Source of the DNA: Flavobacteriales bacterium
Lineage (GTDB): Bacteria > Bacteroidota > Bacteroidia > NS11-12g > UBA955
Direction of reading: 5' to 3'
Assembly: GCA_947496375.1 (NCBI GenBank)
Contig: CANMCY010000001.1
Span: 70,756-134,755, forward strand
DNA: 64,000 bases
Shown here: piece after piece, positions 3,835-55,005 of the stretch
Numbering within the stretch: the first letter of the stretch is position 1
Layout: each line of letters opens with the position of its first letter
Program-made: the position numbers and the translations under genes
Notes under the pieces: model-generated
The model's database searches: none
Seen by the model: the letters and a program-made list of their open reading frames with translations, nothing else
Told to the model about the DNA's origin: nothing

Positions 3835-4532
3835 GATTTAATAAATACACCCTGCCTTTTGATAATGCCGTCTTGCGTTATTCCTTCCATAAAATACACG
3901 CCCGGCGGTAGTGTGGAAATATTCAGTGTTGCCGTAGGTTTGGGAATTGCCAATACTTTTTGACCTGTGGTGTTGTAGATGCTGATGTCAGAGTAATTTT
4001 GTTTTAAATGCAATACATCTGCTGCCGGATTGGGGTAGAAAAAACCGTTATCGGGGGCCTGTGCTTGAGGTCTTGCAGAAATATTGTTTCTTCTGATTTT
4101 AACGACAATGTCTGGTCGGTTGTTGTATACTTTCGGGGCAAATTCCACTTTAATGCTATCTGCACTTAAATTATAAACAAGACAGGATAATCCAATTCCA
4201 TAAAAATCAGCATCAAACTCTGCGTTTATGGGTATATTGTGGTTCACGGTAAAAGATTCACCGGGTAAATAATTGGCAGTAAGGGTATATTTAAAAGCTC
4301 CCCTCGTTCCGGTATCGGTGTTCCAGGTATAAAACCTAAAGATATCGCCGGGCTTTAACGCATCAGGTCCGTTATTTTTTACCCTGAATTGTAATGGGTA
4401 CTGGGTGGGCACATAAATAATTTCGTTCGTATCGGGTTTAATGAAAGTGACTTCCAGGTCAATATCACGGGCGGTTTGGGCCATCAGGCAAGTGTTGGCA
4501 ATGAGTGCGAGTACTAAAAAGGGTGGCCTCAT
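3831..4532 (-). CDS. Secreted protein with T9SS C-terminal sorting domain; tandem paralog of 3142..3834
   Basis: Signal peptide MRPPFLVLALIANTCLMAQ; C-terminal FFYPNPAADVLHLK...GVYFMEG...IKS; ATGA overlap with the downstream gene. Confidence 0.65.
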   Translation of the reverse strand: MRPPFLVLALIANTCLMAQTARDIDLEVTFIKPDTNEIIYVPTQYPLQFRVKNNGPDALKPGDIFRFYTWNTDTGTRGAFKYTLTANYLPGESFTVNHNIPINAEFDADFYGIGLSCLVYNLSADSIKVEFAPKVYNNRPDIVVKIRRNNISARPQAQAPDNGFFYPNPAADVLHLKQNYSDISIYNTTGQKVLAIPKPTATLNISTLPPGVYFMEGITQDGIIKRQGVFIKS

Positions 4533-32638: not shown

Positions 32639-33217
32639 TTACTTCAAAACCAGCTGTTCAATGCTGTCAATCAAAGCATGAATTACTTTGATGTGTATTT
32701 CCTGCGCGCGATCGGCATAGTCAGACTTGGGTGCCCTGATTTCTATGTCACATAACGGAGCCATCTGGCCGCCATCCTTTCCGGTAAGGCCTATGGTTTT
32801 CATGCCCTGATTTTTTGCAGCTTCCATAGCCAGTATGATGTTGCGGCTGTTGCCACTGCTGCTGATTCCAAGTAAAATATCACCGGGTTTACCCAGCCCT
32901 TCTATGTAACGGCTGAAAATAAATTCATATCCGTAATCATTGCCAACACAGCTTATGTGGCTCGGGTCGCTGATGGCGATTGCTGCCAAAGCCCTGCGAT
33001 TGCCCCGATAGCGGCCGCTCAGCTCCTCTGCAAAATGCATGGCATCGCAGTGACTGCCCCCATTGCCGCAACTGATGATTTTACCGCCATTCAACAAGCA
33101 TTCGGCCATCATCGCGGCTGCTTGAGCTATTCGCTGCATGTTTTGTTCATCTTCTGTGAACAAACGCAGTGTTTCTGCCGCTTCGGTAAAATGCTGTTTG
33201 ATTCGTTCCTGTGTCAT
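32639..33217 (-). CDS. gmhA: SIS-domain phosphoheptose isomerase (GmhA/DiaA family)
   Basis: [28 protein letters not shown] and [11 protein letters not shown] motifs. Confidence 0.7.
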
Positions 33218-35325
33218 GGCTGTATTTTTTTGAATTCGCTGATTCCGTTTTGTAAAAACACCTTGAATTTTTCAGCATTGTAATCAAAGGTCTCTGCACT
33301 CCCGGGGTGTTGGAGCAGAATTTCATCCCCTGTCATTAGAACGTATAGTGGCTGACTGTTGCTGTTGAAATAACATGCCTGTATCTCCGCATTCTTTTCT
33401 CCCAGGGTTGTAATCATTTTACCCGAAAACTTACCCTTGAATTGCTCAGATTCGCTCAGTTTTATCTTTTTATCATCTACATATAATGAAACAACCACAT
33501 AGTCGTTCTTCAACAATTTCAACACTTCCGGGTTGCTCCACACTTTCTCTTCCATCTTTCGGCAGTTTACACAACCATGTCCGGTGAAATCGATAAACAG
33601 GGGTTTTTTCTGTGCTTTGGCACATGCCAGTGCTTCTTCATAATCAAAATACCCCTGAATACCATGTGGTATATGCAATTGTCCGGCGTATTTGGGTGTG
33701 TTGCAGTTTGCTGCTGTTATCTCCGTAACATCAGATTCGTTACCCAAGCGGAAATCCTGGGTATGCATAGGGGGCAAATAGCCGGCCAGAGATTTTAACG
33801 GAGCGCCCCAAAGTCCCGGTATCAGGTATACTACAAATGACCAGGTAGCAATGACAAGCATCAATCGGGTAACCGACCAGTAAGGAATATCACTGTCGTG
33901 CGAAAATTTGATTTTACCCATCAGGTAAATGGCCATCAGCGAAAAAATGACAATCCAAAGGGCCAGGTAGATTTCGCGGTCCAGCAGCCCCCAATGGTAG
34001 GTTTGATCTGCAGTACTCAAAAATTTGAGGGCAAATGCAAGTTCAATAAAGCCCAAAACCACCTTTACACTATTCAGCCATCCTCCGCTTTTGGGCAGAC
34101 TTTTCATATAGCTGGGAAAAATCACCAGCAGGCCAAAGGGGAGGGCAAAAGCCAGGGAAAATCCAAGCATGGCAATGATGGGAGTGCTAAGGCCACCCTT
34201 CGCGCTTTCAACCAGAACACTGCCGACAATAGGACCTGTGCACGAAAAAGAAACCAGTGCAATGGTCAGTGCCATGAATACAGGACCTGCAATTCCACCC
34301 TTGTCGGCCCTTTTGTCTATGGCGTTCACCCACGATGCAGGCAAAACCAGTTCGAAGGCACCAAAAAAACTGGCCGCAAACACGATGAAAATAACGAAAA
34401 AGAAAACATTGGGTATCCAGTGCGTGCTAAGCCAGTTGGCTGCATCGGGGCCCACCAGTTTGCTTACCAGTGTTCCGATAATGACATAAATAAGAATGAT
34501 GGCTGCAGCAAACACAATCCCATCTCGTATCGATTTTTTCTTGTCTTCATTTTTTAAGAAAAAGGCAACCGTCATCGGAATCATAGGAAATACGCAAGGG
34601 GTGAGAAGCGCCAATAATCCGGAGGTAAAGGCAAGCCAGAATACCAGCCCCAGGCCTTTGTTGGCGGTTTCGTTTTTAGCGCTTCCCAGGTTACCGGTAT
34701 ATTTCAGCTCAGTGCAGTTGCCGGTTCCCGATTTGTATGAGGTTTTTTCTCCTGATTTGAGGGTTGGGGTATCCGTGAAGTTGCTGCTTTTCAAGGTGTC
34801 CGAATTGATTAACGCTGTCGGTGCCTCTTCAGCAGGGCCCTCTGCAGTTACGGGATTCTGTGCTTCCAGTGTTTCTTCTATCTTCACACACTGGCTTTCG
34901 TCGCACATCTGACCACTAAAACTGCATACCAGCTTTTGAATACTCCCGGTAACTTTAATTTTTTGTTTGAAAACCGCTTTGGCCTGAAATACACCCGTTT
35001 TACAGTTGATTTTGTCTAATTCAGCCAGCTCATCGGTTTTCATTTCATCGCCTATGCCATAGCTTTTGCCTACCGGAATAAAATGGTCTCCGCTAAAGGT
35101 GAGTGAAGCCCTGGTGTAGCCCACATCTTCTGCACAGGTGCTTTTTTCGCTGTAAATATGCATTCCGGATGCCGGCGATAAGCTGACTGTGATCTCAATG
35201 ATGTCGCCCACTTTAACCTTTGATGCGGAAAAAGTCATGCTTTTGGCTGTGGGCTTTTTCATTTGTGCTGTCAACGGTAACGAAATGACCGACAACAAAA
35301 GGACGATGTAAGACTGTATTTTCAT
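33214..35325 (-). CDS. dsbD: Thiol:disulfide interchange protein DsbD (N-terminal domain, cytochrome-c-biogenesis TM core, C-terminal thioredoxin)
   Basis: TM core with [11 protein letters not shown]; C-terminal [14 protein letters not shown] thioredoxin CxxC. Confidence 0.85.
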
Positions 35326-35493
35326 GTAATTACTGCAAAAAAACGAAATTTTCAGGACTATTCATGTAACCAGTGTAACACTATATGGTAACAAACAGAT
35401 GTGAATTATTCCATTTTCGTTGCATTGCTTATGCACTTTTGTGTGAAAAAGAATAGAAGCATTGTTTTTTCGTTCTGTATTTTTGAACAACCC

Positions 35494-36948
35494 ATGCATC
35501 TCCTTCGTTGTACCCTTTTGCTCACGCTGCATTTGTTTTTGTGCTTTAATATCAAGGCACAAAAGATGAATACGGTCCAATACATAGAGGAGTTCAAGTT
35601 TGCCGCCATGCAGGAAATGAAGATTTATGGGATACCGGCTTCGGTTACCCTGGCCCAGGGGATTTTGGAAAGTGCAAGTGGAAATAGCAAGCTGGCCAAA
35701 GACTGTAACAACCATTTTGGTATTAAATGTCGTAAAAACTGGACAGGCAATTATTGCCTGGCCGATGATGATGCACCGGATGAATGCTTCAGGGGTTATG
35801 GCAGCGCCATGGAAAGTTATCGAGACCACAGTCTTTTTCTGAAAGGAGCATCTCGGTATGATTTTTTATTTAGTTTGCCCGCCACAGACTACAAGGCATG
35901 GGCCCATGGGCTCAGGCAGGCAGGTTATGCCACCAATCCGGCTTATGGAAACATTATCATCAGTGTGGTGGACAGGTATCGCCTTTCCATGTATGACAGC
36001 ATGACCATTTTGGGTGATGATTACGATACTCCGGACACAGCTGCAAGCCGGCTGATACAAAAACATGGTCTACCTGCGGTAATTGCATTGAAGAGTCAAA
36101 AACCGGAAGATATAGCCAAGCTATATGATTTGGGCTCATGGCAAATTTATAAATATAACGACCTAAAGAATGGCGAGGATCTGAAACCGGGCGAAATAAT
36201 ATACCTGAAGCCCAAAAAGCGCAGGGCTACTGCAGATTTTCATGCTGTGAGGGAAGGAGAAACCCTTCGAGATATCAGTCAGCAACATGCGGTCAAACTC
36301 AAAAAACTGGAAAAATTCAATCAGATTGTGGCATCAAAACCCCTGAAGCCGGGTGAGATTATTTACCTGCGAGAAAAAAGATTGAATGACTCCCTCAAGA
36401 AAGAAGCAATAAAACGGCAGTCAGAAGTGCAAGAGGAAAGCGATTCCGTATTAAGAATAGCGAAGGAAGGCGATACGTGGCAGAGTCTGGGAAGTCAAAA
36501 TGGAAAGCGGCCTGAAGAACTGAAAAAAAATAATGCAGACATAGAACGTCCGGTGCCGGGGCAGGTTGTGCTGATTTCATCGGAAAAAATCACCGATAAA
36601 ACGGTTGCTGATATGCCGTCAACTGCCGGCAAGATCATGTTTCATTCGGTAATTAAGGGTGAGACCGTATACAGTATTTCCCGGCTTTATAAAATTTCGC
36701 CGGATTCATTGATAAAATGGAACAAAATTAAAGATCATCAAATTAGGGGGGGGCAGGAGTTACAGGTTCAAAGCCCCGATAGCAATGTCCAAGGCAAACA
36801 AAATCAAACACATACGGTATCTGCTGGTGAAACCCTGTTTCAGATTTCGCGTCGGTATGGAGTTTCTGTGGCTGATTTACAGCAGCAAAATGGGCTGAAA
36901 GGCACTGAAATTAAGGTTGGACAACGGATTGTGATTGTGCGGTATTGA
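35494..36948 (+). CDS. Peptidoglycan hydrolase: N-terminal glucosaminidase (FlgJ-like) domain plus four LysM repeats
   Basis: GIPASVTLAQGILESASG is a glucosaminidase motif; four LysM repeats. Start chosen at the internal ATG (MHLLRCTLLL signal peptide) rather than the ORF-track 35401. Confidence 0.7.
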   Translation: MHLLRCTLLLTLHLFLCFNIKAQKMNTVQYIEEFKFAAMQEMKIYGIPASVTLAQGILESASGNSKLAKDCNNHFGIKCRKNWTGNYCLADDDAPDECFRGYGSAMESYRDHSLFLKGASRYDFLFSLPATDYKAWAHGLRQAGYATNPAYGNIIISVVDRYRLSMYDSMTILGDDYDTPDTAASRLIQKHGLPAVIALKSQKPEDIAKLYDLGSWQIYKYNDLKNGEDLKPGEIIYLKPKKRRATADFHAVREGETLRDISQQHAVKLKKLEKFNQIVASKPLKPGEIIYLREKRLNDSLKKEAIKRQSEVQEESDSVLRIAKEGDTWQSLGSQNGKRPEELKKNNADIERPVPGQVVLISSEKITDKTVADMPSTAGKIMFHSVIKGETVYSISRLYKISPDSLIKWNKIKDHQIRGGQELQVQSPDSNVQGKQNQTHTVSAGETLFQISRRYGVSVADLQQQNGLKGTEIKVGQRIVIVRY

Positions 36949-37079
36949 TGGGTTCTTAACAGAAAAGTCATATTTCTGTCATAAGCGGAAACTTTTTTTT
37001 AAAATTTATGCAACCTTTGGGGGGTATAGCGTCATTTTTTTAGCTATAATTGCAACAACTACAAACAAATTTTCATACT

Positions 37080-40000
37080 ATGAAGCTAACAATTACCAAA
37101 ATCACCAGAGCGCTAGGCCTTATGGGCATTGGCTTTCTGGCCATGATGCCGGGTGGTTCAAAGGGGCAAATCTGCACCGCAACGAACTCCTGGGGTTGTG
37201 GACACAACTACGGTGGTAACATCGTGGAAATCAAAATCAGCGACAATGGCGGAACGCTTGCAAGCTATTCAGGCTTGGCTTGTTCAACCACCGCAGCAAC
37301 TAACAACGTGCTGGTTAACTCCGGAAATCCTATCGACATTACTGCCGGCCAGGATCTTACCCTGGAAATCACCGGTTCAGTAGATGCTTACGGTTGGGGT
37401 TACCTTACCCGTGTAGGCATCTGGCTTGATTACGATCGCAACAACAGCTTTTCTGCTGCAGAGTGTATCGCCAGTCCTTCCAGCGGTCCTTGGGCCTCTA
37501 TCGGAACCACAGCGGTGAAATCTACGCTGAAGTTGCCTTGCTGGTCTGCTACTGGTGCCAGCACCATGCGTTTCCGTGGTTTCTACTACTACTCTACTGT
37601 AAACACCAGCATGGGTTGCGGTTCACAGAATACCTATGGAAACATTATTGATGTTGCTGTAAACTTAAAAGTGGGTGCTCCTCCTGTGGCCAATTTCATT
37701 GTTCCTACAGGTCCTAACTACGAGAACACTGTGGTTAAGTTTAACGCTGCTAACCCTAACTCAGCTTACACCTACACCTGGACTTATTCAGGTCCTAATG
37801 TAACCCCTGTTTCTACAACCGGAACCGTAGGCCGTGCTATCTGGACCCCCCCCTCGCCACCTGCCACATTCGACGTGAATATGCTGGTGAGCTATTGCGG
37901 TATTAAAGACTCAATTTCAAAATCAGTTACCATTGTTAGTCCTATCAATGTTCCAACGGCTGATTTTATTGCTAAAGCGAATTCCGTGGAAATCTACTAT
38001 GATGCGGAAATGCTGGATCTTTCTACCAACGGTGCATACAAATGGAGCTGGGAAGCAACTTCTCCATCGGGCTCTCTGTATACCAGCACCACTCAAAATG
38101 CTAAATTCTTCATGGATGAAATAGGTAAGTGGGATTTCTGTCTGACTGCTGAAAACAGCAAAGGCGCTTCTACTAAGACCTGCAAAACTCAGTATGTTGA
38201 ATGTACTCCTCCTTCAGAATTTTATATTGGTATCACCACCCTGGGTGAAAACAAAAAAGGTACCCTGTATGATCATGCCGGTCCAACCGCCAACTACAGC
38301 TCAAACCGTAAAACCAGTATCGATTATTTTAAAATTCTCCCTTGCGGTGCCAAAGAAATTCGTTTGAAGTTCAAACAGATTCGTTTTGCTGATGCCAACG
38401 ACCGTCTCCGTATCTACGATGCAGGTCAGGCAGACGCAGGCAAAGAACTGACACCTGCTGCAGGTATCACCAGCGCTAACCAGGCTACTTACCGTAGTTC
38501 AACCTTCACTGCCAAGAGCGGTGCTATGTATATCACTTTCGAATCTAACGCATCAGGTCAGGATTCAGGTTTCATCGCTACATGGGATTCAGATCTCGCT
38601 CCTCCCGTTAAGCCAAATCCATCTTGGTCTACCGTGTACAACCCTGCCGCTATCGGCACTCAGGTTGAATTCAAGAATACTTCTTCCAATGTACAGGGTG
38701 CACCTGCTTGGGAATGGAGCATCGACGGAAATCCTGAAGCTGTTTCAGAAAGCTACACCCGTGTATTCCCCGCAGACGGTACCTACAACGTATGTCTTTC
38801 AGCCACTACCTGTGATGGTGCTGACACTTTCTGCAAAACCATCGATATCGTAACCCCTACTAAGCCAGGTTCATTGGACTTCACTGCCAGCAACGTTCGT
38901 CCTGATGCCGGTAAGACAGTTGACTTTACCATTACTTCTGACTATGCTACCAATTTTGAGTGGAACATTTTCCCAACCAGCTACACTGTAGTTTCAGGTT
39001 CATTGGTAGGTACCAGCAAGAAATTGACTCTTCGTTTCGATCAGGGTGGTTGCTATACCTTTACCCTCAAGGGCTGGAACGCTGCTGAAAACCCTGCAGG
39101 TTCTACCGAGAAAAAAGTGATCAAGAACAAATACGTTTGTGCATTGAACTACTGCATTCCTCTGGTTGATCTTTTAAGTTCTGATATCGGAATCAACAAG
39201 GTTACTTTGACCAAAGGTTCTACTACACTCATCAAAAACGAAACAACCAGCGGTGAAAAAGCATACTCTGATTTCTCAACAACTCAGAAAGCTACCCTCA
39301 CCTTCGGTGCAACTTACACCCTGGATGTAGCTCGTCTGACCAACAGTAACAGTCTTAACTATAAGGCATGGATCGACTTTAACGTTGATGGTGACTTCAA
39401 CGATGCCGGTGAAGAAATCATGAGCACCGGTATGATTAGCGGTTTGGATGCTACTACTACCTTCACAGTTCCTAACAAGTCTGCCAGCTTCGAAGGCAAC
39501 ACACGTCTGCGTGTAGCCAGCAGCTATGGTAACTTTACCAATACCCCCTGCGGTGTAAATACTGTAGGTGAGTATGAAGACTATGGCATTACCCTTGCTA
39601 ATGATGGTGCTGCACCTGTAATTACCCTGATTGGTAAAGATACTCTTTATGTTGAGCGTACCGGTACTTCAAACGGTTGCTGGGCTGAAGTTGCTACTAC
39701 TACTTACACTGCCAATGACCCAACTGAAGGTGACATGACTTCTAAAGTTAATGTTAACTCTGATCTGGATTGTACCATCCCCGGTATCTACAGCATTGAA
39801 TTTACCCTTTCTGATGCTTCAGGCAACAATGCTGTAACTAAGCGTCGTACAGTATACGTAGTACTTGACAGAACTGCTCCTACACTTACCTTGAACGGAA
39901 ATGCAGTTGAGAAAGTAGAACAGTGCGGTACCTACAGCGAGCCCGGTGCAATTGCAACTGACGCAGTTGATGGTAACCTTACTACTGCTGTAATTATCAG

Positions 40001-41150
40001 CGGTTCCGTAAATACCTCAAAAGTTGGTGACTATGTAATGACTTACACCGTAAGTGACGCTCAGGGTAACACTGCTACTAAGACCCGCACAGTTCAGGTA
40101 CGTGATACCAAGAAGCCAGGTATCTTTAGCGTAGGTAACCGTATCGTTAACAACACCATTGTTAAGGTTCAAATCAACAGCGTGTTTGTAGATAATGTCT
40201 ATGCTCAGGATGAGTGTAATGGTGCTATCGATGTAGTTAAGACTGCCGGCTTTAACGGCCCTGTTAATACTGCCATTCGTGCTACTTACCCCATCGTATA
40301 CACTGCTGTAGATCCTAATGGAAACACTGCCGATGAAGATGGTTTCGTAATTAACTATCAGGTGGATGATTACATTGCACCCGAAGTTTCTCTGAACACT
40401 GAGTCTGTAATTTTCCACGACGTAAATACTCCTTATGTATCTCGTAATGTTACCGTAAGTGATAACTTCTACCCGCTGAACAAAGTGAGTGTTGTTAAAA
40501 CCGGAACTGTAGATCCATATACACTGGGTACCTACACTGAAAGCTACACTGCTACCGATGAAAGCGGAAACACCACTACTGCAGTTCGTACAGTAAACGT
40601 GGTAGATCGCATTGCTCCTCAGATTCTTGCTCCTGCCATGAACGTGTGCGTAGGTACTCCTTTCTGGGCCATGAGCGGTCTGGTAATCAGCGACAACTAC
40701 TACTCACCTTCTACCCTGTCTCCTCTGGTATCAGTGTTGAACCACAACGTCAACATTTACGAAGCTGGTGTTTACTACATCAACTATACTCTTTCTGATC
40801 CTAGCGGCAACAAGGCCATGATGGTAACACGTCCTGTGTTCGTAAACTATCCTCCTAACTGTCAGAATACTTACCTGAGCACAGCTAATGTTAGTCTGGA
40901 AGATGCAGTAAGTGTGTTCCCTAACCCTACCAGCGGTAAGGTAACCCTCAGCTACATGCTTCAGAACAGCAAGCCCGTGAGCGTGGAAGTGTTCAACGTG
41001 TCAGGCAGCAAAGTTGCTTCGTTCAATAACCTGAAATCAGGTCTCGGTCACACCGAAATCAACCTGGCTCAGTATGGTAACGGAGTTTACATGATCCGCC
41101 TGAGCAACGACGGACAGACCACAACCAAGCGTGTTGTAGTTAGAAACTAA
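37080..41150 (+). CDS. Giant T9SS cargo protein, paralog 1: signal peptide, Cys-rich NSWGC module, PKD-like modules, CUB-like domain, GEVED-type module (GEYEDYGI), DUF5011-like Ig repeats, Por_Secre_tail CTD
   Basis: Start taken at ATG 37080 (MKLTITKITRALGLMGIGFLAMMPGG) rather than the TTG at 37050. CUB signature RFADANDRLRIYDAG; DUF5011 signature VEQCGTYSEPGAIATDAVDGNLT; CTD FPNPTSGKVTLSY...VYMIRL. Confidence 0.75.
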   Translation: MKLTITKITRALGLMGIGFLAMMPGGSKGQICTATNSWGCGHNYGGNIVEIKISDNGGTLASYSGLACSTTAATNNVLVNSGNPIDITAGQDLTLEITGSVDAYGWGYLTRVGIWLDYDRNNSFSAAECIASPSSGPWASIGTTAVKSTLKLPCWSATGASTMRFRGFYYYSTVNTSMGCGSQNTYGNIIDVAVNLKVGAPPVANFIVPTGPNYENTVVKFNAANPNSAYTYTWTYSGPNVTPVSTTGTVGRAIWTPPSPPATFDVNMLVSYCGIKDSISKSVTIVSPINVPTADFIAKANSVEIYYDAEMLDLSTNGAYKWSWEATSPSGSLYTSTTQNAKFFMDEIGKWDFCLTAENSKGASTKTCKTQYVECTPPSEFYIGITTLGENKKGTLYDHAGPTANYSSNRKTSIDYFKILPCGAKEIRLKFKQIRFADANDRLRIYDAGQADAGKELTPAAGITSANQATYRSSTFTAKSGAMYITFESNASGQDSGFIATWDSDLAPPVKPNPSWSTVYNPAAIGTQVEFKNTSSNVQGAPAWEWSIDGNPEAVSESYTRVFPADGTYNVCLSATTCDGADTFCKTIDIVTPTKPGSLDFTASNVRPDAGKTVDFTITSDYATNFEWNIFPTSYTVVSGSLVGTSKKLTLRFDQGGCYTFTLKGWNAAENPAGSTEKKVIKNKYVCALNYCIPLVDLLSSDIGINKVTLTKGSTTLIKNETTSGEKAYSDFSTTQKATLTFGATYTLDVARLTNSNSLNYKAWIDFNVDGDFNDAGEEIMSTGMISGLDATTTFTVPNKSASFEGNTRLRVASSYGNFTNTPCGVNTVGEYEDYGITLANDGAAPVITLIGKDTLYVERTGTSNGCWAEVATTTYTANDPTEGDMTSKVNVNSDLDCTIPGIYSIEFTLSDASGNNAVTKRRTVYVVLDRTAPTLTLNGNAVEKVEQCGTYSEPGAIATDAVDGNLTTAVIISGSVNTSKVGDYVMTYTVSDAQGNTATKTRTVQVRDTKKPGIFSVGNRIVNNTIVKVQINSVFVDNVYAQDECNGAIDVVKTAGFNGPVNTAIRATYPIVYTAVDPNGNTADEDGFVINYQVDDYIAPEVSLNTESVIFHDVNTPYVSRNVTVSDNFYPLNKVSVVKTGTVDPYTLGTYTESYTATDESGNTTTAVRTVNVVDRIAPQILAPAMNVCVGTPFWAMSGLVISDNYYSPSTLSPLVSVLNHNVNIYEAGVYYINYTLSDPSGNKAMMVTRPVFVNYPPNCQNTYLSTANVSLEDAVSVFPNPTSGKVTLSYMLQNSKPVSVEVFNVSGSKVASFNNLKSGLGHTEINLAQYGNGVYMIRLSNDGQTTTKRVVVRN

Positions 41151-41205
41151 TTAAGCGTTAGCTTATAAAATAAAAAGCCCGGCCTAGTGCCGGGCTTTTT
41201 ATTTT
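40920..41205 (+). repeat. Copy A of a 286-nt near-identical direct repeat (CTD-coding 3' end plus terminator), shared with 45323..45608
   Basis: Only three mismatches noticed (40928 T vs C, a T vs C in TTCAATAAC/TTCAACAAC, a T vs C in GTAGTTAGA/GTAGTCAGA). Confidence 0.85.
41172..41205 (+). terminator. Rho-independent terminator after paralog 1
   Basis: Stem GCCCGGC/GCCGGGC with loop CTAGT, then TTTTTATTTT. Confidence 0.85.
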
Positions 41206-41272: not shown

Positions 41273-44200
41273 ATGAAAAACAAAAAATTACTTTCATTGC
41301 TCCTGGCGATAATAGCTTTGGGCATCAGTTTCACCGAACTTAAGGCGCAATGCTCTGCCAACAACTCCTGGGGTTGTAACAGTTGGTATGGTGGCTGGGT
41401 TCGCAACATCGGAATCAAGGATGCTGCCGGAGGGACACTTGCCAGCTACACAGGTTTAGGATGTCAATCTTCCAATTCCACCATTAATTCAGGCAGTGCA
41501 ATTGATTTGGTTGCAGGCCAGCAGATCACCATTGAGTTGAACACTGAGTGTTGCCATAACTGGAGCACCGGTGTAGGTATCTGGTTGGATCAGGACAGAA
41601 ATGGAGATTTTACTACCTCAGAATGTATTTTAGATCCTCAGTCATCTTTCTATTCCATTTCCAACAATGCTTCATCGCCTTCGCGAGTAACGTTAACCCT
41701 GCCTTGTTTTACCGGTTCAGGTAAAAGTTTTTTGCGTTTCCGTGCCCAGTCCCATTACAATGGCTACAGACTTTACAATTATCAAGGATGCGGTACCGCA
41801 GATTTCTACGGTAGCACCTATGATGTAGAAGTTAACCTAAAGCGCCTGCCCGATCCTGTGGCTGACTTTGGCGTGCCTACCGGACCCAATTACGAAAAGA
41901 CTACCATTAAATTTCCGGCAACTACCCAGGAAAAGGCCAATTCTTATAGCTGGACCTTTCAGGGTCCGAATGAAACCCCTGTGGTTAATAATGCTCCAAC
42001 AGGCAGAGCCAAATGGTCTCCTGCCTCACCACCCTCTACTCATGATGTAACGCTGAATGTGTCTTATTGTGGTAAAACCAGCACCAAAACCAAAAAGGTA
42101 ACTATAGTTAGACCTACAGCAGCTCCGGTTGCTGATTTTATTGCTAAAAGCAACAGTGTAGAAATTTACAATAACGCCGAGCTGATTGATTTGTCTACCA
42201 ATGGTCCTTACATCTGGGCATGGGAAGCTACTTCACCCACAGGAAATAAATATACATCTTCTCAGGAAGAACCTAAGTTTTATCTGGACGAGGAAGGTAA
42301 ATGGTCTTTCTGCCTTACCTCAGAAAATGGTCTGGGTAAATCTACTAAAGTTTGTAAAACACAATATGTTACCTGCACACCTCCTTCAGAATTCTATATG
42401 GGTCCACAGACTGAAGGACGCAGTGTTAAAGGACTTTTATATGACCATAACGGTCCATCCAGCAACTATGGTAATAATCGCAGAACCAGCATCGATTACT
42501 TTTTGATCAATCCCTGCGATGCCAAAGAAATTCGTCTTAAATTCAAAAGCTTGCGTTTTTGTGATTATCAGGACAGACTTCGTATCTATGACGGTGACCA
42601 AGCCGATCCTGCAAAACTGCTGACCGGCCCAGAGGGTATTAACGGTAATACCTGGTGGAATGACCGCACTAAAACCTATGTGGCCAAATCCGGAAAGATG
42701 TATCTATCTTTTGAAAGCGATAACAATGGCTGTACTGACTCAGGCTGGATTGCCACTTGGGAAACCGATCAGTTTAAGCCGGTTCAAACCATCGCATCTT
42801 ATACCACCAATTACGACACCATCGCAGAAGGTGTAAACCTGGCCATGTTGAACAAAACATTGATAACAGGAACACCAAAATGGTCATGGAGAGTAAATGG
42901 TTCTGAAGAATCCATCTCAAAAGATTTTACCCGTGCATTCAACACGGCTGGTGTTCAGCGTGTTTGTCTGGCTGCCACCAACTGCAGCACTACCGATACC
43001 TTCTGCAAGAATATCCGCGTAGTAACTCCGGTGAGCTCAATGAACAAAATTGACTTCATTACCGACAAAACCCGCAGCGTGCCCGGCGAGAATGTAACGT
43101 TAACCGCCGAGACCAACTACGCAAATAATCTTACCTGGACTATCACGCCCAATACCTATACGTTGGTATCAGGCAGTCTTACGGGTAATTCATCTCAACT
43201 ATTGGTTAGGTTCACTGCCGGTGGTTGTTACACAGTAGAACTGAAGGGGTACAACACTGCCTTAGGTTCTGGTACCACCCGCACCGTTACCAAGAAAGAC
43301 ATTATTTGTGCTATTGACTATTGCACCCCTGTGGTAGATTTGACCAATAGTGATGTGGGAATCAACATGGTTCAGCTATCTTCAAAAGGCAACAACCTGA
43401 TAAACAGAATCAGCAACAGCGGTGTGTCATACACCAATTACGCAGCAACAGACAATGCCACCCTATATTATGGCTCTACTTACAAAGTTAAGGTGGGTAG
43501 AAATACCAACCTGAATCCAATCAACTACAAGGTATGGATTGACTACAACTTTGACGGTGATTTCAATGACAGTGGAGAAACTGTGATGAACAGCGGACGC
43601 ATCAATGGTGTGATTGACAGTGCCTCATTCAAAGTCCCCATGCACACAAATGCGTACCTGGGAAATACCCGCATGCGTGTTGGTGCAAGCTATGGCGCTA
43701 TGTCTAACACACCCTGCGGACTGAACGTGGTAGGTGAGTTTGAAGATTATAGCGTGACATTGACACGGGATAATTCTCAGCCGGTAATCACGCTTACAGG
43801 TTTGGATACGATGTACATAGAGAAAACAGTAGGCGCTACTGCTTGCTGGTCTGAAATCAAGAAAACCACCTACATGGGCGATGATGCCGATCAGGGTGAC
43901 TTGACAGACAGCGTTAAAGTGACCGGTACTTACGATTGCAGCACACCCGGTACTTACAAGCTTACTTTCAATTTGACAGACGCTTCCGGCAATAAGGCCA
44001 TGACCAAAAACCGCGTTCTGATTGTAGAAAACGACCGTACTGCCCCGACCATTGCCCTGCGTGGTAACTCAGTAGAAATGGTAGAACAGTGCGGAATCTT
44101 CTATGATTCAACTGCTACAGCTTATGATATCACCGATGGAAATCTGACCGATTCAGTGAAAGTTTCTGGCAGCGTAAATACCAAAAATATCGGTGATTAT

Positions 44201-45553
44201 GTATTGACTTATACCGTAAAAGATAAAGTAGGTTTGAGTGCTACTGTTACCCGTCTGGTGAAAGTGCGCGATACCAAAGCACCCGGTATTTACCTCGGCA
44301 GCACCCGTATCGTTGATAGCCAGATTGTGAATGTGCAGATTGGCAGCTTCTTCAATGATTACGTGTATGCTTCTGATGAATGTAACGGCTTCACTGCAAT
44401 CCAGAAAATGCCCGGTGCCAAAGGATATGTAAATCCTATGGTGAAAGGTACTTACCCGACTCAGTATTTTGCTACGGATGTAAACGGAAACGTATCTACA
44501 GAGAATGGTTATACTGTTCTTTATAAGGTGGATGACTACATTGCACCTGAGATTAGTCTGAATACGGAAGACACCATAATGCATGATGTAAAAACGCCTT
44601 ACAGTTCTGTAGCGGTTACCATCACTGAGAACTATACAGCGCAGAGCAAGTTGATTACCAGCAAGGTATCCAATGTAAATGCCAATGTGGTAGGTGTGTA
44701 TACTGAAGTGTATACAGCTGAAGACGAAAGCGGCAACAAAGCAACCAAAACCCGCGTGGTAAAGGTGGTGGACCGTTTCGCTCCCGAATTGTTGTTGAAT
44801 TCAGATGCTTACATGATTCATGATGTTAACACAAACTATGTTTCACGTAACGTATCGGTGAGTGACAATTACAGCCCTGTAAGCAAGATTACCGTAGTGA
44901 AAACAGGTACTGTAAATGCTACCGTTCTTGGCACTTACACTGAGACATACACTGCTACCGATGAAAACGGCAACAGCACAACCAAAGTTCGCACTGTGGA
45001 AGTGGTTGACCGTGTTTCTCCCCAGATTCTGGCACCTGCAGTGAATGTATGTATCGGTACTCCTTTCTGGGCAATGAGTGGCCTTACCATCACAGATAAC
45101 TATTATTCTGCTTCTGTATTAGCTCCTTTGGTGACGATCCTGGGTCAAAACATCAATATCTGGGAAGCCGGTGTGTACCATGTTGATTACAGCCTGACTG
45201 ACCCGAGCGGAAACAAGGCCGTGCTGGTAACCCGCCCAGTGTATGTGAATTATCCTCCAAATTGCCAGAACACATTCCTGAACACACAAGACATGGATCT
45301 GGACAAAGCGGTGAGCATTTCGCCTAACCCCACCAGCGGTAAGGTAACCCTCAGCTACATGCTTCAGAACAGCAAGCCCGTGAGCGTGGAAGTGTTCAAC
45401 GTGTCAGGCAGCAAAGTTGCTTCGTTCAACAACCTGAAATCAGGTCTCGGTCACACCGAAATCAACCTGGCTCAGTATGGTAACGGAGTTTACATGATCC
45501 GCCTGAGCAACGACGGACAGACCACAACCAAGCGTGTTGTAGTCAGAAACTAA
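41273..45553 (+). CDS. Giant T9SS cargo protein, paralog 2 (1426 aa; same architecture, one extra DUF5011-like repeat)
   Basis: QCSANNSWGC N-terminal module; CUB motif FCDYQDRLRIYDGD; GEFEDYSV; CTD identical to paralog 1. Confidence 0.8.
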   Translation: MKNKKLLSLLLAIIALGISFTELKAQCSANNSWGCNSWYGGWVRNIGIKDAAGGTLASYTGLGCQSSNSTINSGSAIDLVAGQQITIELNTECCHNWSTGVGIWLDQDRNGDFTTSECILDPQSSFYSISNNASSPSRVTLTLPCFTGSGKSFLRFRAQSHYNGYRLYNYQGCGTADFYGSTYDVEVNLKRLPDPVADFGVPTGPNYEKTTIKFPATTQEKANSYSWTFQGPNETPVVNNAPTGRAKWSPASPPSTHDVTLNVSYCGKTSTKTKKVTIVRPTAAPVADFIAKSNSVEIYNNAELIDLSTNGPYIWAWEATSPTGNKYTSSQEEPKFYLDEEGKWSFCLTSENGLGKSTKVCKTQYVTCTPPSEFYMGPQTEGRSVKGLLYDHNGPSSNYGNNRRTSIDYFLINPCDAKEIRLKFKSLRFCDYQDRLRIYDGDQADPAKLLTGPEGINGNTWWNDRTKTYVAKSGKMYLSFESDNNGCTDSGWIATWETDQFKPVQTIASYTTNYDTIAEGVNLAMLNKTLITGTPKWSWRVNGSEESISKDFTRAFNTAGVQRVCLAATNCSTTDTFCKNIRVVTPVSSMNKIDFITDKTRSVPGENVTLTAETNYANNLTWTITPNTYTLVSGSLTGNSSQLLVRFTAGGCYTVELKGYNTALGSGTTRTVTKKDIICAIDYCTPVVDLTNSDVGINMVQLSSKGNNLINRISNSGVSYTNYAATDNATLYYGSTYKVKVGRNTNLNPINYKVWIDYNFDGDFNDSGETVMNSGRINGVIDSASFKVPMHTNAYLGNTRMRVGASYGAMSNTPCGLNVVGEFEDYSVTLTRDNSQPVITLTGLDTMYIEKTVGATACWSEIKKTTYMGDDADQGDLTDSVKVTGTYDCSTPGTYKLTFNLTDASGNKAMTKNRVLIVENDRTAPTIALRGNSVEMVEQCGIFYDSTATAYDITDGNLTDSVKVSGSVNTKNIGDYVLTYTVKDKVGLSATVTRLVKVRDTKAPGIYLGSTRIVDSQIVNVQIGSFFNDYVYASDECNGFTAIQKMPGAKGYVNPMVKGTYPTQYFATDVNGNVSTENGYTVLYKVDDYIAPEISLNTEDTIMHDVKTPYSSVAVTITENYTAQSKLITSKVSNVNANVVGVYTEVYTAEDESGNKATKTRVVKVVDRFAPELLLNSDAYMIHDVNTNYVSRNVSVSDNYSPVSKITVVKTGTVNATVLGTYTETYTATDENGNSTTKVRTVEVVDRVSPQILAPAVNVCIGTPFWAMSGLTITDNYYSASVLAPLVTILGQNINIWEAGVYHVDYSLTDPSGNKAVLVTRPVYVNYPPNCQNTFLNTQDMDLDKAVSISPNPTSGKVTLSYMLQNSKPVSVEVFNVSGSKVASFNNLKSGLGHTEINLAQYGNGVYMIRLSNDGQTTTKRVVVRN

Positions 45554-45608
45554 TTAAGCGTTAGCTTATAAAATAAAAAGCCCGGCCTAGTGCCGGGCTT
45601 TTTATTTT
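45323..45608 (+). repeat. Copy B of the 286-nt near-identical direct repeat
   Basis: See copy A. Confidence 0.85.
45575..45608 (+). terminator. Rho-independent terminator after paralog 2 (same hairpin as after paralog 1)
   Basis: GCCCGGC-CTAGT-GCCGGGC, then a T-tract. Confidence 0.85.
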
Positions 45609-45675: not shown

Positions 45676-48600
45676 ATGAAAATAAAAATACTACTTAAGT
45701 TTATTGCTTGGGCGGCATTTATCGGTTTTAATTTACCGGATGCCCATGCTCAGTGTTCTGCCAGCAACTCCTGGGGTTGTGGCGGATGGTACGGGGGTGA
45801 CTTGCAGTCCATTGTGGTGAAAGACGCTGCCGGTGGAACACTGGCCAGCTACACCGGTTTAGGATGTGCCTCATCCAATAGAACTTTAAATACAGGTAAA
45901 CCAATAGATTTGGTTGCAGGCCAGCAAATTACCATTGAAGTTGCAAATAGTGGTGGAAACTGGTCTACCGGCGTAGGTATCTGGCTGGATCAAAATTTTG
46001 ATGGTTCTTTCTCAACCTCAGAGTGTATTTTAAGTCCTACCAGTACTTTTTACACTACCTCCAGTAATCCATCTGCACCTTCCAGGGTAACCATTACCCT
46101 GCCTTGCTGGTCCGGAAGTGGCAAGAGCTGGCTTCGTCTTAGAAGCTTGTCTCACTACACCTATGGCTTAGGCACAGGATCAGGATGTGGTACTGTAACA
46201 GGGTATGGATCTATCAATGATATTGAGGTAAATATGAAGCGTTTACCCAATCCAACTTCAGATTTTAACGTGCCCCGTGGTCCAAACTATGAAAGGACTA
46301 CCATTAAGTTTCCTGCCAGCAGTCAAGATCCTGCTTACACCTATAGCTGGACATTTGCCGGACCTAATGTTACGGTAGTAAATAACGCTTCTTCAATAGG
46401 CCAAGCGAAATGGTCTCCGGTATCACCTCCGAGCACGCATGATGTAACACTGAATGTATCGTATTGTGGTGTATCGGCCACCAAAACCAAACAGATAACG
46501 ATAGAGCAGCCAAAGGCAGCCCCTGTGGCAGATTTCATCGCCAAGAAGAACAGTGTAGAGATCTATAACAATGCAGAACTGGTGGATTTGTCTACCAATG
46601 GGCCTTACAGCTGGGTATGGGAAGCAGTTTCCCCTGCCGGAAATCTGTATACATCAGGGCAGCAGAACCCATTGTTTTTCCTCGATGAGGTGGGTAAATG
46701 GAATTTCTGTCTGACCTCACAAAACGGACTTGGCGTATCTACTAAGGTTTGTAAAAACCAGTATGTGGAATGTACGCCCCCTACAGAATATTACATGGGA
46801 CCGCAGACAGTAGGTGAAAGTTCAATAGGTATGCTGTATGACCATGCAGGTCCGTCACAGAACTATACCAATAACAGACGAAACAGCATTGACTATTTCT
46901 TGATAAAGCCCTGCGATGCGAAAGAGATTAGATTGAAATTTAAGAGTCTGCGTTTTTGCGATAACGGCGATATCTTGAGAATATACGATTCTGAGTTTGC
47001 CGATCCTGCCAAACAGTTAACCCCTTCAACGGGCATCAACGGCAGCAATTGGAATTTCTATAGAACACAGACATTCAAGGCCACCAGCGGCAGGATGTAC
47101 CTGACTTTTGAAAGTAATTCATCATGTGTAGATTCGGGCTTCATTGCGCTATGGGAATCAGACCGTGCTAAACCAATTCCTACACTTAGTTCATTTACCA
47201 ATAAGTACGATACAATTGCAGAGGGAGTAAATTTGACTTTTATTAACAAAACCATTATCACGGGTACGCCCAACTGGTCATGGCGCGTCAATAATACCGA
47301 GGAGTCAACTTCCAAAGAGTTTTCGCGTACGTTTACTGCATCGGGAGCTCAGAAAGTATGTCTGGTTGCCGGCAATTGCAGCAGTTCAGATACATTCTGT
47401 AAAACCATTCGTGTGGTACCGCCTTCATCTTCCATGGCGAAGCTGGATTTTGTTTCAGACAAGGTACGTGTAATTCCCAATGAAACGGTTACCTTAACGG
47501 CGGAGACCAACTTTGCCGATAACCTGGAATGGGTAATCACTCCGAACTCTTATACTTTGGTATCAGGCAATTTGATAGGCAACAGTTCACAGATACAGTT
47601 CAAGCCCACATCGGGTGGATGTTTTACTGTGGAGTTGAAAGGATATAACAGTTTGCTTGGATTTGGTACGGCAAAAACCGTAATCAAAAAAGAGATAGTG
47701 TGTGCAGTTGATTATTGCACGCCTGTGGTAGATCTGACCAATTCAGATGTTGGAATAAACATTGTAGAACTGCTTGAACAGGATACCTTCCGGATCAATA
47801 AGACGAGCGGAAGCGGTGTGTCATACAGCAACTTTATGAGCACGGACAAAGCATCCTTGAACTTTGGCGCGAGCTACAAGGTTAAAGTGGGTCGTTTTAC
47901 CAACATCAACCCGATCAATTACAAGGTATGGATAGATTTTAATATTGATGGAGACTTCGATGATGCGGGAGAAACGGTATTAACCTCGGGTAAAATCAGT
48001 GGATTTACGGACAGTGCTACGTTCCGGGTTCCGCCTTTTGCCCGCGCATTTGAAGGTCTGACCCGCATGCGTGTGGGTGCCAGCTATGGATCGCTGGATA
48101 ACTATCCTTGCGGAGTGAATGTTGTGGGTGAATTTGAGGATTATGGAATTACACTGCTTCGGGATAACTCCAAACCAGAAATTACATTGCTGGGTGGAGA
48201 TACCATCTACGTAGAAAAGATCGGTACAGCAGGTGGCTGCTGGGCTGAAGCTAAGAAAACGACTTACATGGGCGAAGACGGCCATGAGGGCGATTTGACG
48301 GACAGTGTAAAGATTAGCGGAACATTCAATTGCAGTGTGGCCGGAACCTATAAACTGGAGTTCAACCTCACCGATGCATCGGGCAACCAGGCAGATAAAA
48401 AGACGCGCTTACTGATTGTAGAAAATGACCGTACCCGTCCGTCCATCACGCTTCGTGGAAAGGCGCTGGAAAATATTGAGCAGTGCGGAACATTCTATGA
48501 TTCATTGGCCACTGCATTCGATAAGACAGACGGAAACCTAACCGATTCAATCAAAGTGATTGGCAGTGTGAATACCAATGTGATTGGGGATTATGTATTG

Positions 48601-49698
48601 ACCTATACGGTAAAAGATAAAGCCGGATTGACAGCGTCAGTTAAAAGAACAATCAAGGTTCGCGATACCAAAGGTCCCGGTATATTTATCGGAGGCAGCC
48701 GTATACTCGATAGTCAGGTGGTACAGGTGCAGATAGGAACCATCTTCACCGATTATGTATATGCCGAAGACGATTGCAACGGGTATACAGAGATTCGTAA
48801 AATGCCGGGAGCTAAGGGGACTGTGAACGCTACCGCGAAGGGATCGTACCCAACACGCTATTTTGCTACCGATATTAATGGAAATGTATCACCGGAGAAT
48901 GGATACACGCTGATATACAAGGTTGATGACTTTGTAGCCCCTGAGATAGAGCTGAATACACAGGATACAATCTATCATGATGTGAAGACCGATTACGTTT
49001 CACGCAGCGTAACCATCCGCGAGAATTACTCATCACCTCTGTTGGTGAAGACTACCAAGAGCAGCAATGTGAATGAGAATGTTTTGGGTGTGTATCAGGA
49101 GGTGTTCACGGCAGAGGATGAGAGCGGCAATAAGGCCATCAGAACCCGTGTGGTGAAGGTAGTGGACCGCACAGCCCCGGATTTGCTGGGCGGCAACATC
49201 ACAACCTGCGTGGGTGACCCCTTCTGGGCGATGAGCGGCCTTCACGTTATCGATAACTACTACGACTCAGCCGCGCTGATGCCCAGGGTGAAAGTGGTAA
49301 GCCACAACGTGAATATCTGGGTGAAGGGAATCTACTTCATTAATTATTCACTGACAGACCCAAGCGGTAACGCTTCCAAAATGATTAGCCGTGACGTGCA
49401 CGTGTTGCCTCAGGGAGAATGCTCCAGCACTTATTCAGGAGTTAGTAATTTAACCGCTGACGGAATCCGGGTATACCCCAATCCTACTGCTGGTTCGGTA
49501 CAGATAGATGCCGGTAAACTGCAAAGCAGCATAACTGCTGTGGAAGTGTGGGACAACAGTGGTCGCATGCTGCACAGTGTGAAATCTACAGGAAATATAA
49601 CCACCTTGCAGCTGAATGCATACGCAGCGGGTGTATATACCCTGAAAATTAAGACTGCAGACCGCACTTGGGTTAAACCGATCATATTGAATAAATAA
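45676..49698 (+). CDS. Giant T9SS cargo protein, paralog 3 (1340 aa; same architecture, distinct CTD)
   Basis: QCSASNSWGC; CUB motif FCDNGDILRIYDSE; GEFEDYGI; CTD RVYPNPTAGSVQID...VYTLKI. Confidence 0.8.
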   Translation: MKIKILLKFIAWAAFIGFNLPDAHAQCSASNSWGCGGWYGGDLQSIVVKDAAGGTLASYTGLGCASSNRTLNTGKPIDLVAGQQITIEVANSGGNWSTGVGIWLDQNFDGSFSTSECILSPTSTFYTTSSNPSAPSRVTITLPCWSGSGKSWLRLRSLSHYTYGLGTGSGCGTVTGYGSINDIEVNMKRLPNPTSDFNVPRGPNYERTTIKFPASSQDPAYTYSWTFAGPNVTVVNNASSIGQAKWSPVSPPSTHDVTLNVSYCGVSATKTKQITIEQPKAAPVADFIAKKNSVEIYNNAELVDLSTNGPYSWVWEAVSPAGNLYTSGQQNPLFFLDEVGKWNFCLTSQNGLGVSTKVCKNQYVECTPPTEYYMGPQTVGESSIGMLYDHAGPSQNYTNNRRNSIDYFLIKPCDAKEIRLKFKSLRFCDNGDILRIYDSEFADPAKQLTPSTGINGSNWNFYRTQTFKATSGRMYLTFESNSSCVDSGFIALWESDRAKPIPTLSSFTNKYDTIAEGVNLTFINKTIITGTPNWSWRVNNTEESTSKEFSRTFTASGAQKVCLVAGNCSSSDTFCKTIRVVPPSSSMAKLDFVSDKVRVIPNETVTLTAETNFADNLEWVITPNSYTLVSGNLIGNSSQIQFKPTSGGCFTVELKGYNSLLGFGTAKTVIKKEIVCAVDYCTPVVDLTNSDVGINIVELLEQDTFRINKTSGSGVSYSNFMSTDKASLNFGASYKVKVGRFTNINPINYKVWIDFNIDGDFDDAGETVLTSGKISGFTDSATFRVPPFARAFEGLTRMRVGASYGSLDNYPCGVNVVGEFEDYGITLLRDNSKPEITLLGGDTIYVEKIGTAGGCWAEAKKTTYMGEDGHEGDLTDSVKISGTFNCSVAGTYKLEFNLTDASGNQADKKTRLLIVENDRTRPSITLRGKALENIEQCGTFYDSLATAFDKTDGNLTDSIKVIGSVNTNVIGDYVLTYTVKDKAGLTASVKRTIKVRDTKGPGIFIGGSRILDSQVVQVQIGTIFTDYVYAEDDCNGYTEIRKMPGAKGTVNATAKGSYPTRYFATDINGNVSPENGYTLIYKVDDFVAPEIELNTQDTIYHDVKTDYVSRSVTIRENYSSPLLVKTTKSSNVNENVLGVYQEVFTAEDESGNKAIRTRVVKVVDRTAPDLLGGNITTCVGDPFWAMSGLHVIDNYYDSAALMPRVKVVSHNVNIWVKGIYFINYSLTDPSGNASKMISRDVHVLPQGECSSTYSGVSNLTADGIRVYPNPTAGSVQIDAGKLQSSITAVEVWDNSGRMLHSVKSTGNITTLQLNAYAAGVYTLKIKTADRTWVKPIILNK

Positions 49699-53973: not shown

Positions 53974-55005
53974 TTATTTCAACAATTCCCACGCGATTTT
54001 TGGGAAGCCCTTCTCGCCTTTATCGTTATAAAAATCAACGAAACGCATTTTGAAGTAGTTCCCCTTGGCATCCAGAATAATGAATATCTTCTTTTGATTA
54101 ACCGTGTATTTATTGGCGGTCAGACTCCATGTTTTCCAGTCGTAACCTATCTCATTGAGATAATTGCTTAATACCAGTGATTTGGCATAGTTCAAATCAA
54201 TCAGATTGAAGTCAATTACATTATTTAGTTCCAGTACCTTTACTTTATTAGGGTTGGTCAATACACCCCTGAGAATGTAGGGCATGGTGGTTCCAAGGGT
54301 TTCTTCCGTAACGGTTTGCTTGTAGGTGGTAATCACCATGTCCCAGTTATCTCTGTTAAATGGTTCGTTATACACTTCTTTTTCAGAGGAGAAGTTGTAG
54401 TACGCATAATTGTATTCGTTTTTAACATTGATAAATACATCATTTTTGGGTACTGTATCCGTTAAAAGGCCCCACTGAAAGTGGTAGGAAGAACCCTCAC
54501 GGCCAAGCAGTCTGAGTTTGATAAATTTTTTGTTTCCAAGAGAATCTGCACCGCGATTAATAATGTAAATCCTGTTCTTAGGTTTTGCTTTACCCATCTG
54601 ATAACTTTCCCAGCAGCCGGAAAATGAGAGAGAGTCGGGGTGTCCGTTAGGGTTGTCAAAAGTCCAGGTGTAGCGGTTGATGTCTATTTGCCGAATGTCT
54701 TTAAAATCAGCGTTTTCAATGTAGGTAGCTGAAAAACCGCTATGCTTACCGCAGTTCAATACAATGCTGTTTTGTTCGCTTAGTGAAAATCCTATATCCC
54801 ACAGGCCAAACGGATTGGATGCGGTCTTCTGCGTGGCAAATTCAAACCATAGCTGATTTTCGTAATTTTCGCCCATGGCAAAGGTGGCAGACTGCGTGCC
54901 AACAGGAACTTCCGGTGCAATGTAGAGAGGTTCGTCCTTCTCGCAGGAAGCCAGGCACATCAATACAATTATGAGACCAATCCAGTATGTATTACTCCCC
55001 CTCAT
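53974..55005 (-). CDS. HmuY-family (heme-binding) lipoprotein, long form
   Basis: Lipobox LASCEK; GLWDIGFSLSEQNSIVLNCG resembles the HmuY NWDMALHRYDVRLNCG core. Confidence 0.5.
   Translation of the reverse strand: MRGSNTYWIGLIIVLMCLASCEKDEPLYIAPEVPVGTQSATFAMGENYENQLWFEFATQKTASNPFGLWDIGFSLSEQNSIVLNCGKHSGFSATYIENADFKDIRQIDINRYTWTFDNPNGHPDSLSFSGCWESYQMGKAKPKNRIYIINRGADSLGNKKFIKLRLLGREGSSYHFQWGLLTDTVPKNDVFINVKNEYNYAYYNFSSEKEVYNEPFNRDNWDMVITTYKQTVTEETLGTTMPYILRGVLTNPNKVKVLELNNVIDFNLIDLNYAKSLVLSNYLNEIGYDWKTWSLTANKYTVNQKKIFIILDAKGNYFKMRFVDFYNDKGEKGFPKIAWELLK

Follow-up and report, generated by a model that had tools for sequence, protein, structure and literature searches.

The window analyzed here is a 64,000-nucleotide (nt) stretch of a Flavobacteriales genome (GenBank assembly GCA_947496375.1; contig CANMCY010000001.1, positions 70,756 to 134,755 of the forward strand). 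It carries three tandem genes for giant paralogous proteins (p1, p2, and p3; Table 1), each of which contains a segment of ~132 amino acids (aa) resembling the CUB domain; these segments are 60 to 62% identical to one another. The module order of p1, based on Pfam and NCBIfam, is a putative signal peptide, a GEVED domain, a PKD-like domain, the CUB segment, two PKD domains, a second GEVED domain, five Bact_surface_Ig-like/HYR repeats, and a type IX secretion system (T9SS) C-terminal domain. Each paralog contains five or six Bact_surface_Ig-like/HYR repeats, and PKD domains flank the CUB segment on both sides. No catalytic domain was found in p1 to p3 in the Pfam and NCBIfam scans. The N-termini of all three proteins are hydrophobic, as read from the sequence, and all three end in a type A T9SS sorting domain (46 to 48 bits with TIGR04183 [cutoff, 23] and 41.5 to 51.1 bits with PF18962 [cutoff, 27]), which finishes 1 to 3 residues from the C terminus. 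The combination of a putative signal peptide and this sorting domain suggests that p1 to p3, as nonenzymatic multidomain proteins, are exported and most likely displayed in an adhesin-like manner at the cell surface, the host being a Flavobacteriales-type bacterium from fresh water. In public records, the window proteins and their orthologs are named "hypothetical protein," "PKD repeat protein," or "DUF5011 domain-containing protein."

Profile searches and predicted fold of the CUB segments

A preliminary description of this DNA had proposed a CUB domain in all three giant T9SS proteins, and this proposal is supported by profile searches, hhalign, and the predicted fold. The peptide on which it was based is the exact frame-1 translation of positions 38199 to 38596, within the 1,366-aa open reading frame (ORF) of p1. 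Equivalent segments do exist in p2 and p3, but the starts given for them (approximately 42374 and 46770) miss the actual positions by 3 and 2 nt, respectively, and the latter is out of frame. When the segments were scanned in isolation, the Pfam CUB model (PF00431) was the sole match for each of them (16.9, 16.7, and 16.4 bits; E value, about 0.01), and the match began at profile position 14 or 28 and ended at position 108 or 109 of 110.

A single-sequence phmmer search against the PDB gave no match, and a word-indexed protein search returned only three relatives. A profile of six sequences (i.e., the three paralogs and three close relatives) gave only nonsignificant matches in the PDB (fibrinogen gamma, E value of 0.06; enteropeptidase CUB, 0.15). 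Searched against 1.84 billion representative proteins, the same profile matched 1,612 proteins (50%-identity clusters) at an E value of ≤1e-3 and 458 at ≤1e-10, many of them with multiple copies. Nine of ten such matches that were scanned with Pfam contained CUB far above the threshold, mostly together with Por_Secre_tail, and the strongest of these scores were 506.8 bits over eight domains and 334.9 bits over six. In an ortholog with the same architecture (P0014; 1,360 aa), CUB was detected at the position of the window domain with 27.5 bits (cutoff, 21.4).

All 43 distinct sequences that a 50-sequence family profile matched in the PDB were CUB proteins, with cubilin as the best match (1e-52) and with PCPE-1, neuropilins, enteropeptidase, TSG-6, MASPs, C1r/C1s, Kremen, and GPR126 among the others. 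A profile restricted to 17 sequences of the divergent subfamily that includes the window domains, which removes the dependence on classic bacterial CUBs, matched cubilin (3.5e-13), enteropeptidase (1.7e-4), neuropilin-2 (2.3e-4), and TSG-6 (3.2e-4). Aligned with hhalign against eight metazoan CUBs, the subfamily gave a probability of 97.5% and an E value of 7.8e-12 over 103 columns.

The AlphaFold2 (AF2) model of the p1 segment, built with the 50-sequence alignment, was all-beta (predicted local distance difference test score [pLDDT], 96.6; predicted template modeling score [pTM], 0.90), and a control model of p2 built with the 17 subfamily sequences only (pLDDT, 93.2; pTM, 0.88) had the same strand pattern. 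The models comprise eight strands of at least three residues, short bridges, and one short helix, and they form the beta-sandwich jelly-roll of two antiparallel sheets that is characteristic of CUB (~110 residues). For both models, the top 50 Foldseek matches in the PDB were exclusively CUB structures (E values down to 1.8e-7), including Kremen, neuropilin, PCPE-1, C1s/C1r, TSG-6, cubilin, MASP, enteropeptidase, GPR126, and the spermadhesins 1SPP and 1SFP; the comparison with CUB structures such as 1SPP, which the preliminary description had put forward, thus came out in favor of CUB. TM-scores were 0.60 to 0.70 when normalized by the query and 0.70 to 0.77 when normalized by the target for single-domain entries. 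In both models, strands at residues 6 to 10 and 20 to 24, ahead of the Tyr in loop L3, indicate that beta1/beta2 are kept. On these profiles and models, the three segments are bona fide divergent CUB domains, and their resemblance to CUB is not a matter of chance.

Position, loops, and the Ca2+-ligand motif

In animal Ca2+-binding CUBs, the ion is held between the long odd-numbered loops, and that face is the ligand-binding site (PMC8051872). The corresponding face of the window domains, on which the subfamily-specific conserved residues D25, R37, D42, D65, D68, and E115 are predicted to lie, may be the one that is used, with the single CUB, at its fixed position between PKD/Ig-like domains, serving a surface adhesin either in ligand recognition or as a rigid spacer. 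A protein- or glycan-binding role, as suggested in the preliminary description, is plausible. The CUB1-2 domains of ADAMTS13 provide a precedent for CUBs that lack Ca2+ ligands and use other surfaces (PMC8051872), although they are without beta1/beta2 and act in intramolecular latency, for which no partner is evident in the case of the window domains.

It is also possible, although we lean against it, that the CUB fold is a mere rigid spacer like the adjoining PKD/Ig domains and does not itself bind a ligand. The domain is set within a string of Ig-like modules, its Ca2+ motif is degenerate, and as many as 34 CUB copies are stacked in related proteins, as is typical of stalk-like repeats; each window protein, however, has exactly one copy, whose fixed position is conserved in orthologs from many metagenome-assembled genomes (MAGs), and the invariant loop residues (D25, G28, P29, N32, Y33, R37, D42, D65, D68, and E115) exceed what the fold needs.

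CUB domains typically have four cysteines that form two disulfides (C1-C2 and C3-C4), a pattern that is not universal, as some lack one pair. This pattern was not found in the window domains, in which the C3 segment is deleted and C4 is absent. Based on the family alignment and hhalign, the subfamily has an additional N-terminal stretch (E-C-T-P-P...), whose strands correspond to beta1/beta2, and a 4-residue deletion in loop L5 at the position of the animal C-x-Y-D cysteine; there is also a 4-residue insertion in the beta2-beta3/L3 region (NRKTSIDYF). It has a Cys pair of its own (Cys2/Cys49), to which p2 and p3 add an L5/L9 pair. The preliminary description held that paralog 2 retains the consensus Cys, but that residue (FCDYQD; p3 likewise) fills the column of the Ca2+-ligand Glu, and the segment with the canonical Cys is missing.

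A Tyr/Glu/Asp/Asp ligand motif defines the Ca2+-binding subset of CUBs (cbCUBs) (Gaboriaud et al. 2011, as cited in PMC8051872). Ca2+-binding residues had been flagged for inspection in the preliminary description, and this motif (L3, L5, and L9) proved to be incomplete in p1, p2, and p3. Its columns read Y33, A64 (with D65 adjacent), D68, and N117 in p1, with no Cys in L5 or L9; Y, C, D, and D in p2, with a Cys in L5 (RFCDYQD) and another in L9 (FESDNNGCTDSGW); and Y, C, D, and N in p3, with a Cys in L5 (RFCDNGD) and another in L9 (FESNSSCVDSGF). An invariant Asp directly follows the position of the lost Glu in all three domains. The subfamily has lost the L5 segment with the canonical second-disulfide cysteine as well as the Ca2+-site Glu (replaced by Ala in p1 and by Cys in p2 and p3), and Asn takes the place of the L9 Asp in p1 and p3. 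We took a census of the motif in 899 near-full-length domains from 156 proteins (i.e., 153 homologs and the three window proteins): the Tyr is present in 880, the Glu in 441, and the first Asp in 858, and the second Asp column holds 523 Asp and 279 Asn residues. Of these related bacterial domains, 363 (40%) have a complete Y-(E/D)-D-D motif.

Ca2+-binding CUBs are typically without beta1/beta2, and spermadhesins retain beta1/beta2 and bind no Ca2+ (PMC8051872). With an incomplete motif and with beta1/beta2 kept, the window domains resemble the latter class; they look like CUBs that do not bind Ca2+, with an alternative acidic site being possible. Like the window domains, the spermadhesins PSP-I/PSP-II (1SPP) and aSFP (1SFP) keep beta1/beta2 and have no complete Ca2+ motif. 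However, they are free-standing single-domain animal proteins, whereas the window domain is embedded in a protein of ~1,400 aa, and the identity is only 7 to 14%.

It is unlikely that the window domains are canonical Ca2+-binding CUBs (as in C1r/C1s, MASP, and cubilin), which would engage a basic residue on a protein ligand through a Ca2+ ion held by L5 and L9. The motif does retain Tyr33 and Asp68, as well as the L9 Asp in p2, the invariant Asp65 could stand in for the lost Glu, and two-fifths of the related bacterial domains have the complete motif. Against these similarities stand the Ala or Cys in the Glu column, the Asn in L9 of p1 and p3, the retention of beta1/beta2, whose absence is a hallmark of Ca2+-binding CUBs (PMC8051872), and the paired L5/L9 cysteines of p2 and p3, which suggest other means of fixing the loops.

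In the subfamily, the L5 Cys is always paired with an L9 Cys (FESNSSC-DSGF or FESDNNGC-DSGW). Of the subfamily domains in the window and related loci (23 in total), 5 contain the two cysteines together and 18 lack both (Fisher P = 3e-5), and in the wider set an L9 Cys is present in 4 of 5 domains with an L5 Cys versus 18 of 894 domains without one (Fisher P = 1.3e-6), counts that are not phylogenetically independent. Two of the four domains are from P0096 (an unrelated giant homolog of 5,432 aa), in which Cys occupies the Glu column of the domains at residues 2406 to 2516 and 3795 to 3912 and their L9 contains a CCC cluster; this represents an independent occurrence of L5/L9 cysteines. As L5 and L9 are the loops that Ca2+ bridges in animal CUBs, the pair is most naturally read as a disulfide that takes the place of the metal. 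We infer that p2 and p3 probably have a candidate L5-L9 disulfide instead of a Ca2+ site, which would staple together the loops joined by Ca2+ in animal CUBs.

A bacterial CUB family in T9SS cargo

The 156 proteins contain 927 CUB-type domains. Copy numbers range from 1 to 34 per homolog (median, 5), with at least 5 copies in 87 of the 153 homologs. A T9SS C-terminal domain was detected with a local iterative hidden Markov model (HMM) in 111 of the 156 proteins, and many of the others are contig fragments. The multiple copies in homologs and the frequency of T9SS tails together indicate that CUB is a frequent module of Bacteroidota T9SS cargo. To judge from these homologs, T9SS surface proteins of Bacteroidota are commonly built with CUB, which is no bacterial rarity; given the 1,612 clusters described above, the copy numbers, and the T9SS tails, the earlier statement that CUB domains are rare in bacteria was too strong. 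Searches of a paper collection for links between CUB domains and the T9SS found nothing relevant.

Classic bacterial multi-CUB T9SS cargo proteins (e.g., P0045, with eight CUBs, and P0077, with six) were found directly with the window-subfamily profile and come from the same phylum-level context. They share with the window proteins the Por_Secre_tail, the association with PKD domains, and the signature YD-x-GGP-x-x-NY, which is common to the window subfamily and other bacterial CUBs. Their CUBs are in tandem, score far above the Pfam cutoff, and mostly have an L-E-x-x-x-D ... S-D Ca2+ motif, whereas the window subfamily is single-copy and subthreshold, with an ECTPP N-terminal extension and an ADxxD core.

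Metazoan CUBs (i.e., those of cubilin, neuropilin a1/a2, PCPE-1, TSG-6, Kremen, and C1r/C1s/MASP) resemble the window domains in their jelly-roll fold, profile homology, extracellular location, and common motifs (x-Y in L3, D-x-L-x-I-Y-D-G, and a C-terminal G-F-x-A-x-W). In contrast to these, the window domains are ~20 residues longer, have the insertion in the L3 region and the deletion in L5, lack the C3-C4 disulfide, have Ala or Cys in place of the Glu, and are part of T9SS cargo in a bacterial host. The domain is best known from metazoan extracellular proteins, and in the papers searched the CUBs of prokaryotes came up only as "eukaryotic-like" curiosities, such as those of sponge Thaumarchaeota (PMC7848895). 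It is nevertheless very improbable that the bacterium recently acquired an animal CUB by horizontal transfer, and we rejected this origin on the basis of family size and identity levels: the bacterial family is large and deeply diversified, it has its own signature, and its members are 23 to 62% identical to the window domains, compared with only 10 to 24% for animal CUBs. On these comparisons, the window domain belongs to a large bacterial CUB radiation found mainly in T9SS cargo and is not a recent animal acquisition. A chance motif likeness on another beta-sandwich (e.g., a carbohydrate-binding module, MAM, or discoidin), for which the subthreshold Pfam score, the lack of a single-sequence PDB match, and the low identity to animal CUBs could be cited, is effectively refuted, as CUB is the sole answer given by the profile searches, by hhalign, and by the Foldseek results for two independent AF2 models.

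Genomic surroundings and overall reading

Table 1. Coordinates of the paralogs, their domains, and upstream genes in the window
Feature	Position	Strand	Remarks
p1 (paralog 1)	37050..41150	+	1,366-aa ORF as listed
Weak PKD-like Ig domain of p1, aa 311-383	37980..38198	+	Directly upstream of CUB; PKD_4 E value 0.0088, isolated segment
CUB domain of p1, aa 384-515	38199..38594	+	Pfam CUB match; AF2 pLDDT 96.6; Foldseek top 50 all CUB
PKD domain of p1, aa 522-600	38613..38849	+	Directly downstream of CUB; PKD_4 31.6 bits, above cutoff of 27
T9SS type A C-terminal sorting domain of p1, aa 1289-1365	40914..41144	+	Por_Secre_tail 51.1 bits; TIGR04183 48.4 bits, cutoff 23
p2 (paralog 2)	41273..45553	+	1,426 aa; p1 architecture plus one additional Ig-like repeat
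CUB domain of p2, aa 367-499	42371..42769	+	Pfam CUB match; AF2 pLDDT 93.2; Foldseek top 50 all CUB
T9SS C-terminal domain of p2, aa 1349-1425	45317..45547	+	DNA 96% identical to p1 counterpart
p3 (paralog 3)	45676..49698	+	1,340 aa; p1 architecture
CUB domain of p3, aa 365-496	46768..47163	+	Pfam CUB match, family alignment
T9SS C-terminal domain of p3, aa 1266-1338	49471..49689	+	Pfam and NCBIfam match
DsbD-like thiol:disulfide interchange protein	33214-35325	-	Upstream of p1
LysM-containing glucosaminidase	35401-36948	+	Directly upstream of p1
155-aa ORF, probably spurious	35362-35829	-	Overlaps LysM glucosaminidase gene

The listed ORF of p1 begins at a TTG, and translation more likely starts from the ATG at codon 11 (37080; MKLTITK...). 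No entry identical to the 1,366-aa sequence exists in the protein collection, in which p2 and p3 are present. All three paralogs have a Cys-rich N-terminal module (QCSA-NSWGC...; 37050 to 37700, 41273 to 41900, and 45676 to 46300); the first GEVED domain lies inside it (aa 122 to 201 in p1; 29.5 bits), and there are thus two GEVED domains per protein. The terminal ~300 nt of p1 and p2 (40895 to 41194 and 45298 to 45597) are 96% identical, with the match extending 44 nt beyond the stop codons, compared with only about 70% identity elsewhere in the two genes, which indicates a recent gene conversion of the T9SS sorting domain between p1 and p2.

The genes flanking the paralogs are housekeeping genes (i.e., those for the DsbD-like protein, LysM glucosaminidase, aspartokinase, FBPase, and RecO), and the region is not a polysaccharide utilization locus. 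Elsewhere in the window, a gene for an HmuY-like protein adjoins that for a TonB-dependent receptor (53974 to 57272, reverse strand), a probable haem-uptake pair. Loci closely related to this one, with identities of up to 96%, belong to MAGs of freshwater Bacteroidota/Flavobacteriales. Three related loci (L005, L013, and L019) are Bacteroidota-type T9SS cargo contigs in MAGs labeled Sphingomonadales, Rhizobium, and Bifidobacteriaceae and are probably misbinned contigs or come from mislabeled bins.

Several observations count against a CUB assignment or against the role proposed for it. The bare-sequence Pfam CUB scores (16.4 to 16.9 bits) are below the gathering threshold of 21.4 bits, which is an operational annotation criterion and not a biological feature, and CUB was not listed in the whole-protein Pfam scan of p1 to p3 at an E value of ≤1; the Pfam check envisaged in the preliminary description was accordingly borne out in that CUB was the sole match per segment but not in its significance, which was reached only with profiles. 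The subfamily-only profile had one non-CUB match (levansucrase; E value, 0.0019), which we treated as spurious. The co-occurrence of L5 and L9 cysteines rests on few independent lineages, the p2 and p3 types being paralogs, and the housekeeping neighbors offer no clue to function.

These points notwithstanding, we consider it very probable that the best explanation of the whole is one genuine divergent CUB per paralog, in exported T9SS cargo, derived from a bacterial radiation, and with a proposed recognition/spacer role. The identity of the domains, their fold and family context, the T9SS sorting signal (together with a putative N-terminal export signal), and the state of the motif are demonstrated here.

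The understanding of CUB domains and of the T9SS is unchanged by these results, which add a divergent member to a known domain family that is common in this setting. They do provide the correct domain for proteins recorded as hypothetical, PKD repeat, or DUF5011 proteins and reveal a CUB subfamily that escapes the Pfam cutoff, and the L5/L9 cysteine pair represents a small, testable idea on the replacement of a Ca2+ site. A more far-reaching view, which we regard as doubtful, is that Bacteroidota hold a very large and essentially undescribed radiation of T9SS-cargo CUBs, within which the window subfamily has given up the Ca2+ site in exchange for an L5-L9 disulfide. If this were true, the swap would be a natural experiment on how a ligand-binding face is stabilized, and if bacterial CUBs prove to be as old and diverse as those of animals, the CUB fold would not have originated in metazoans.

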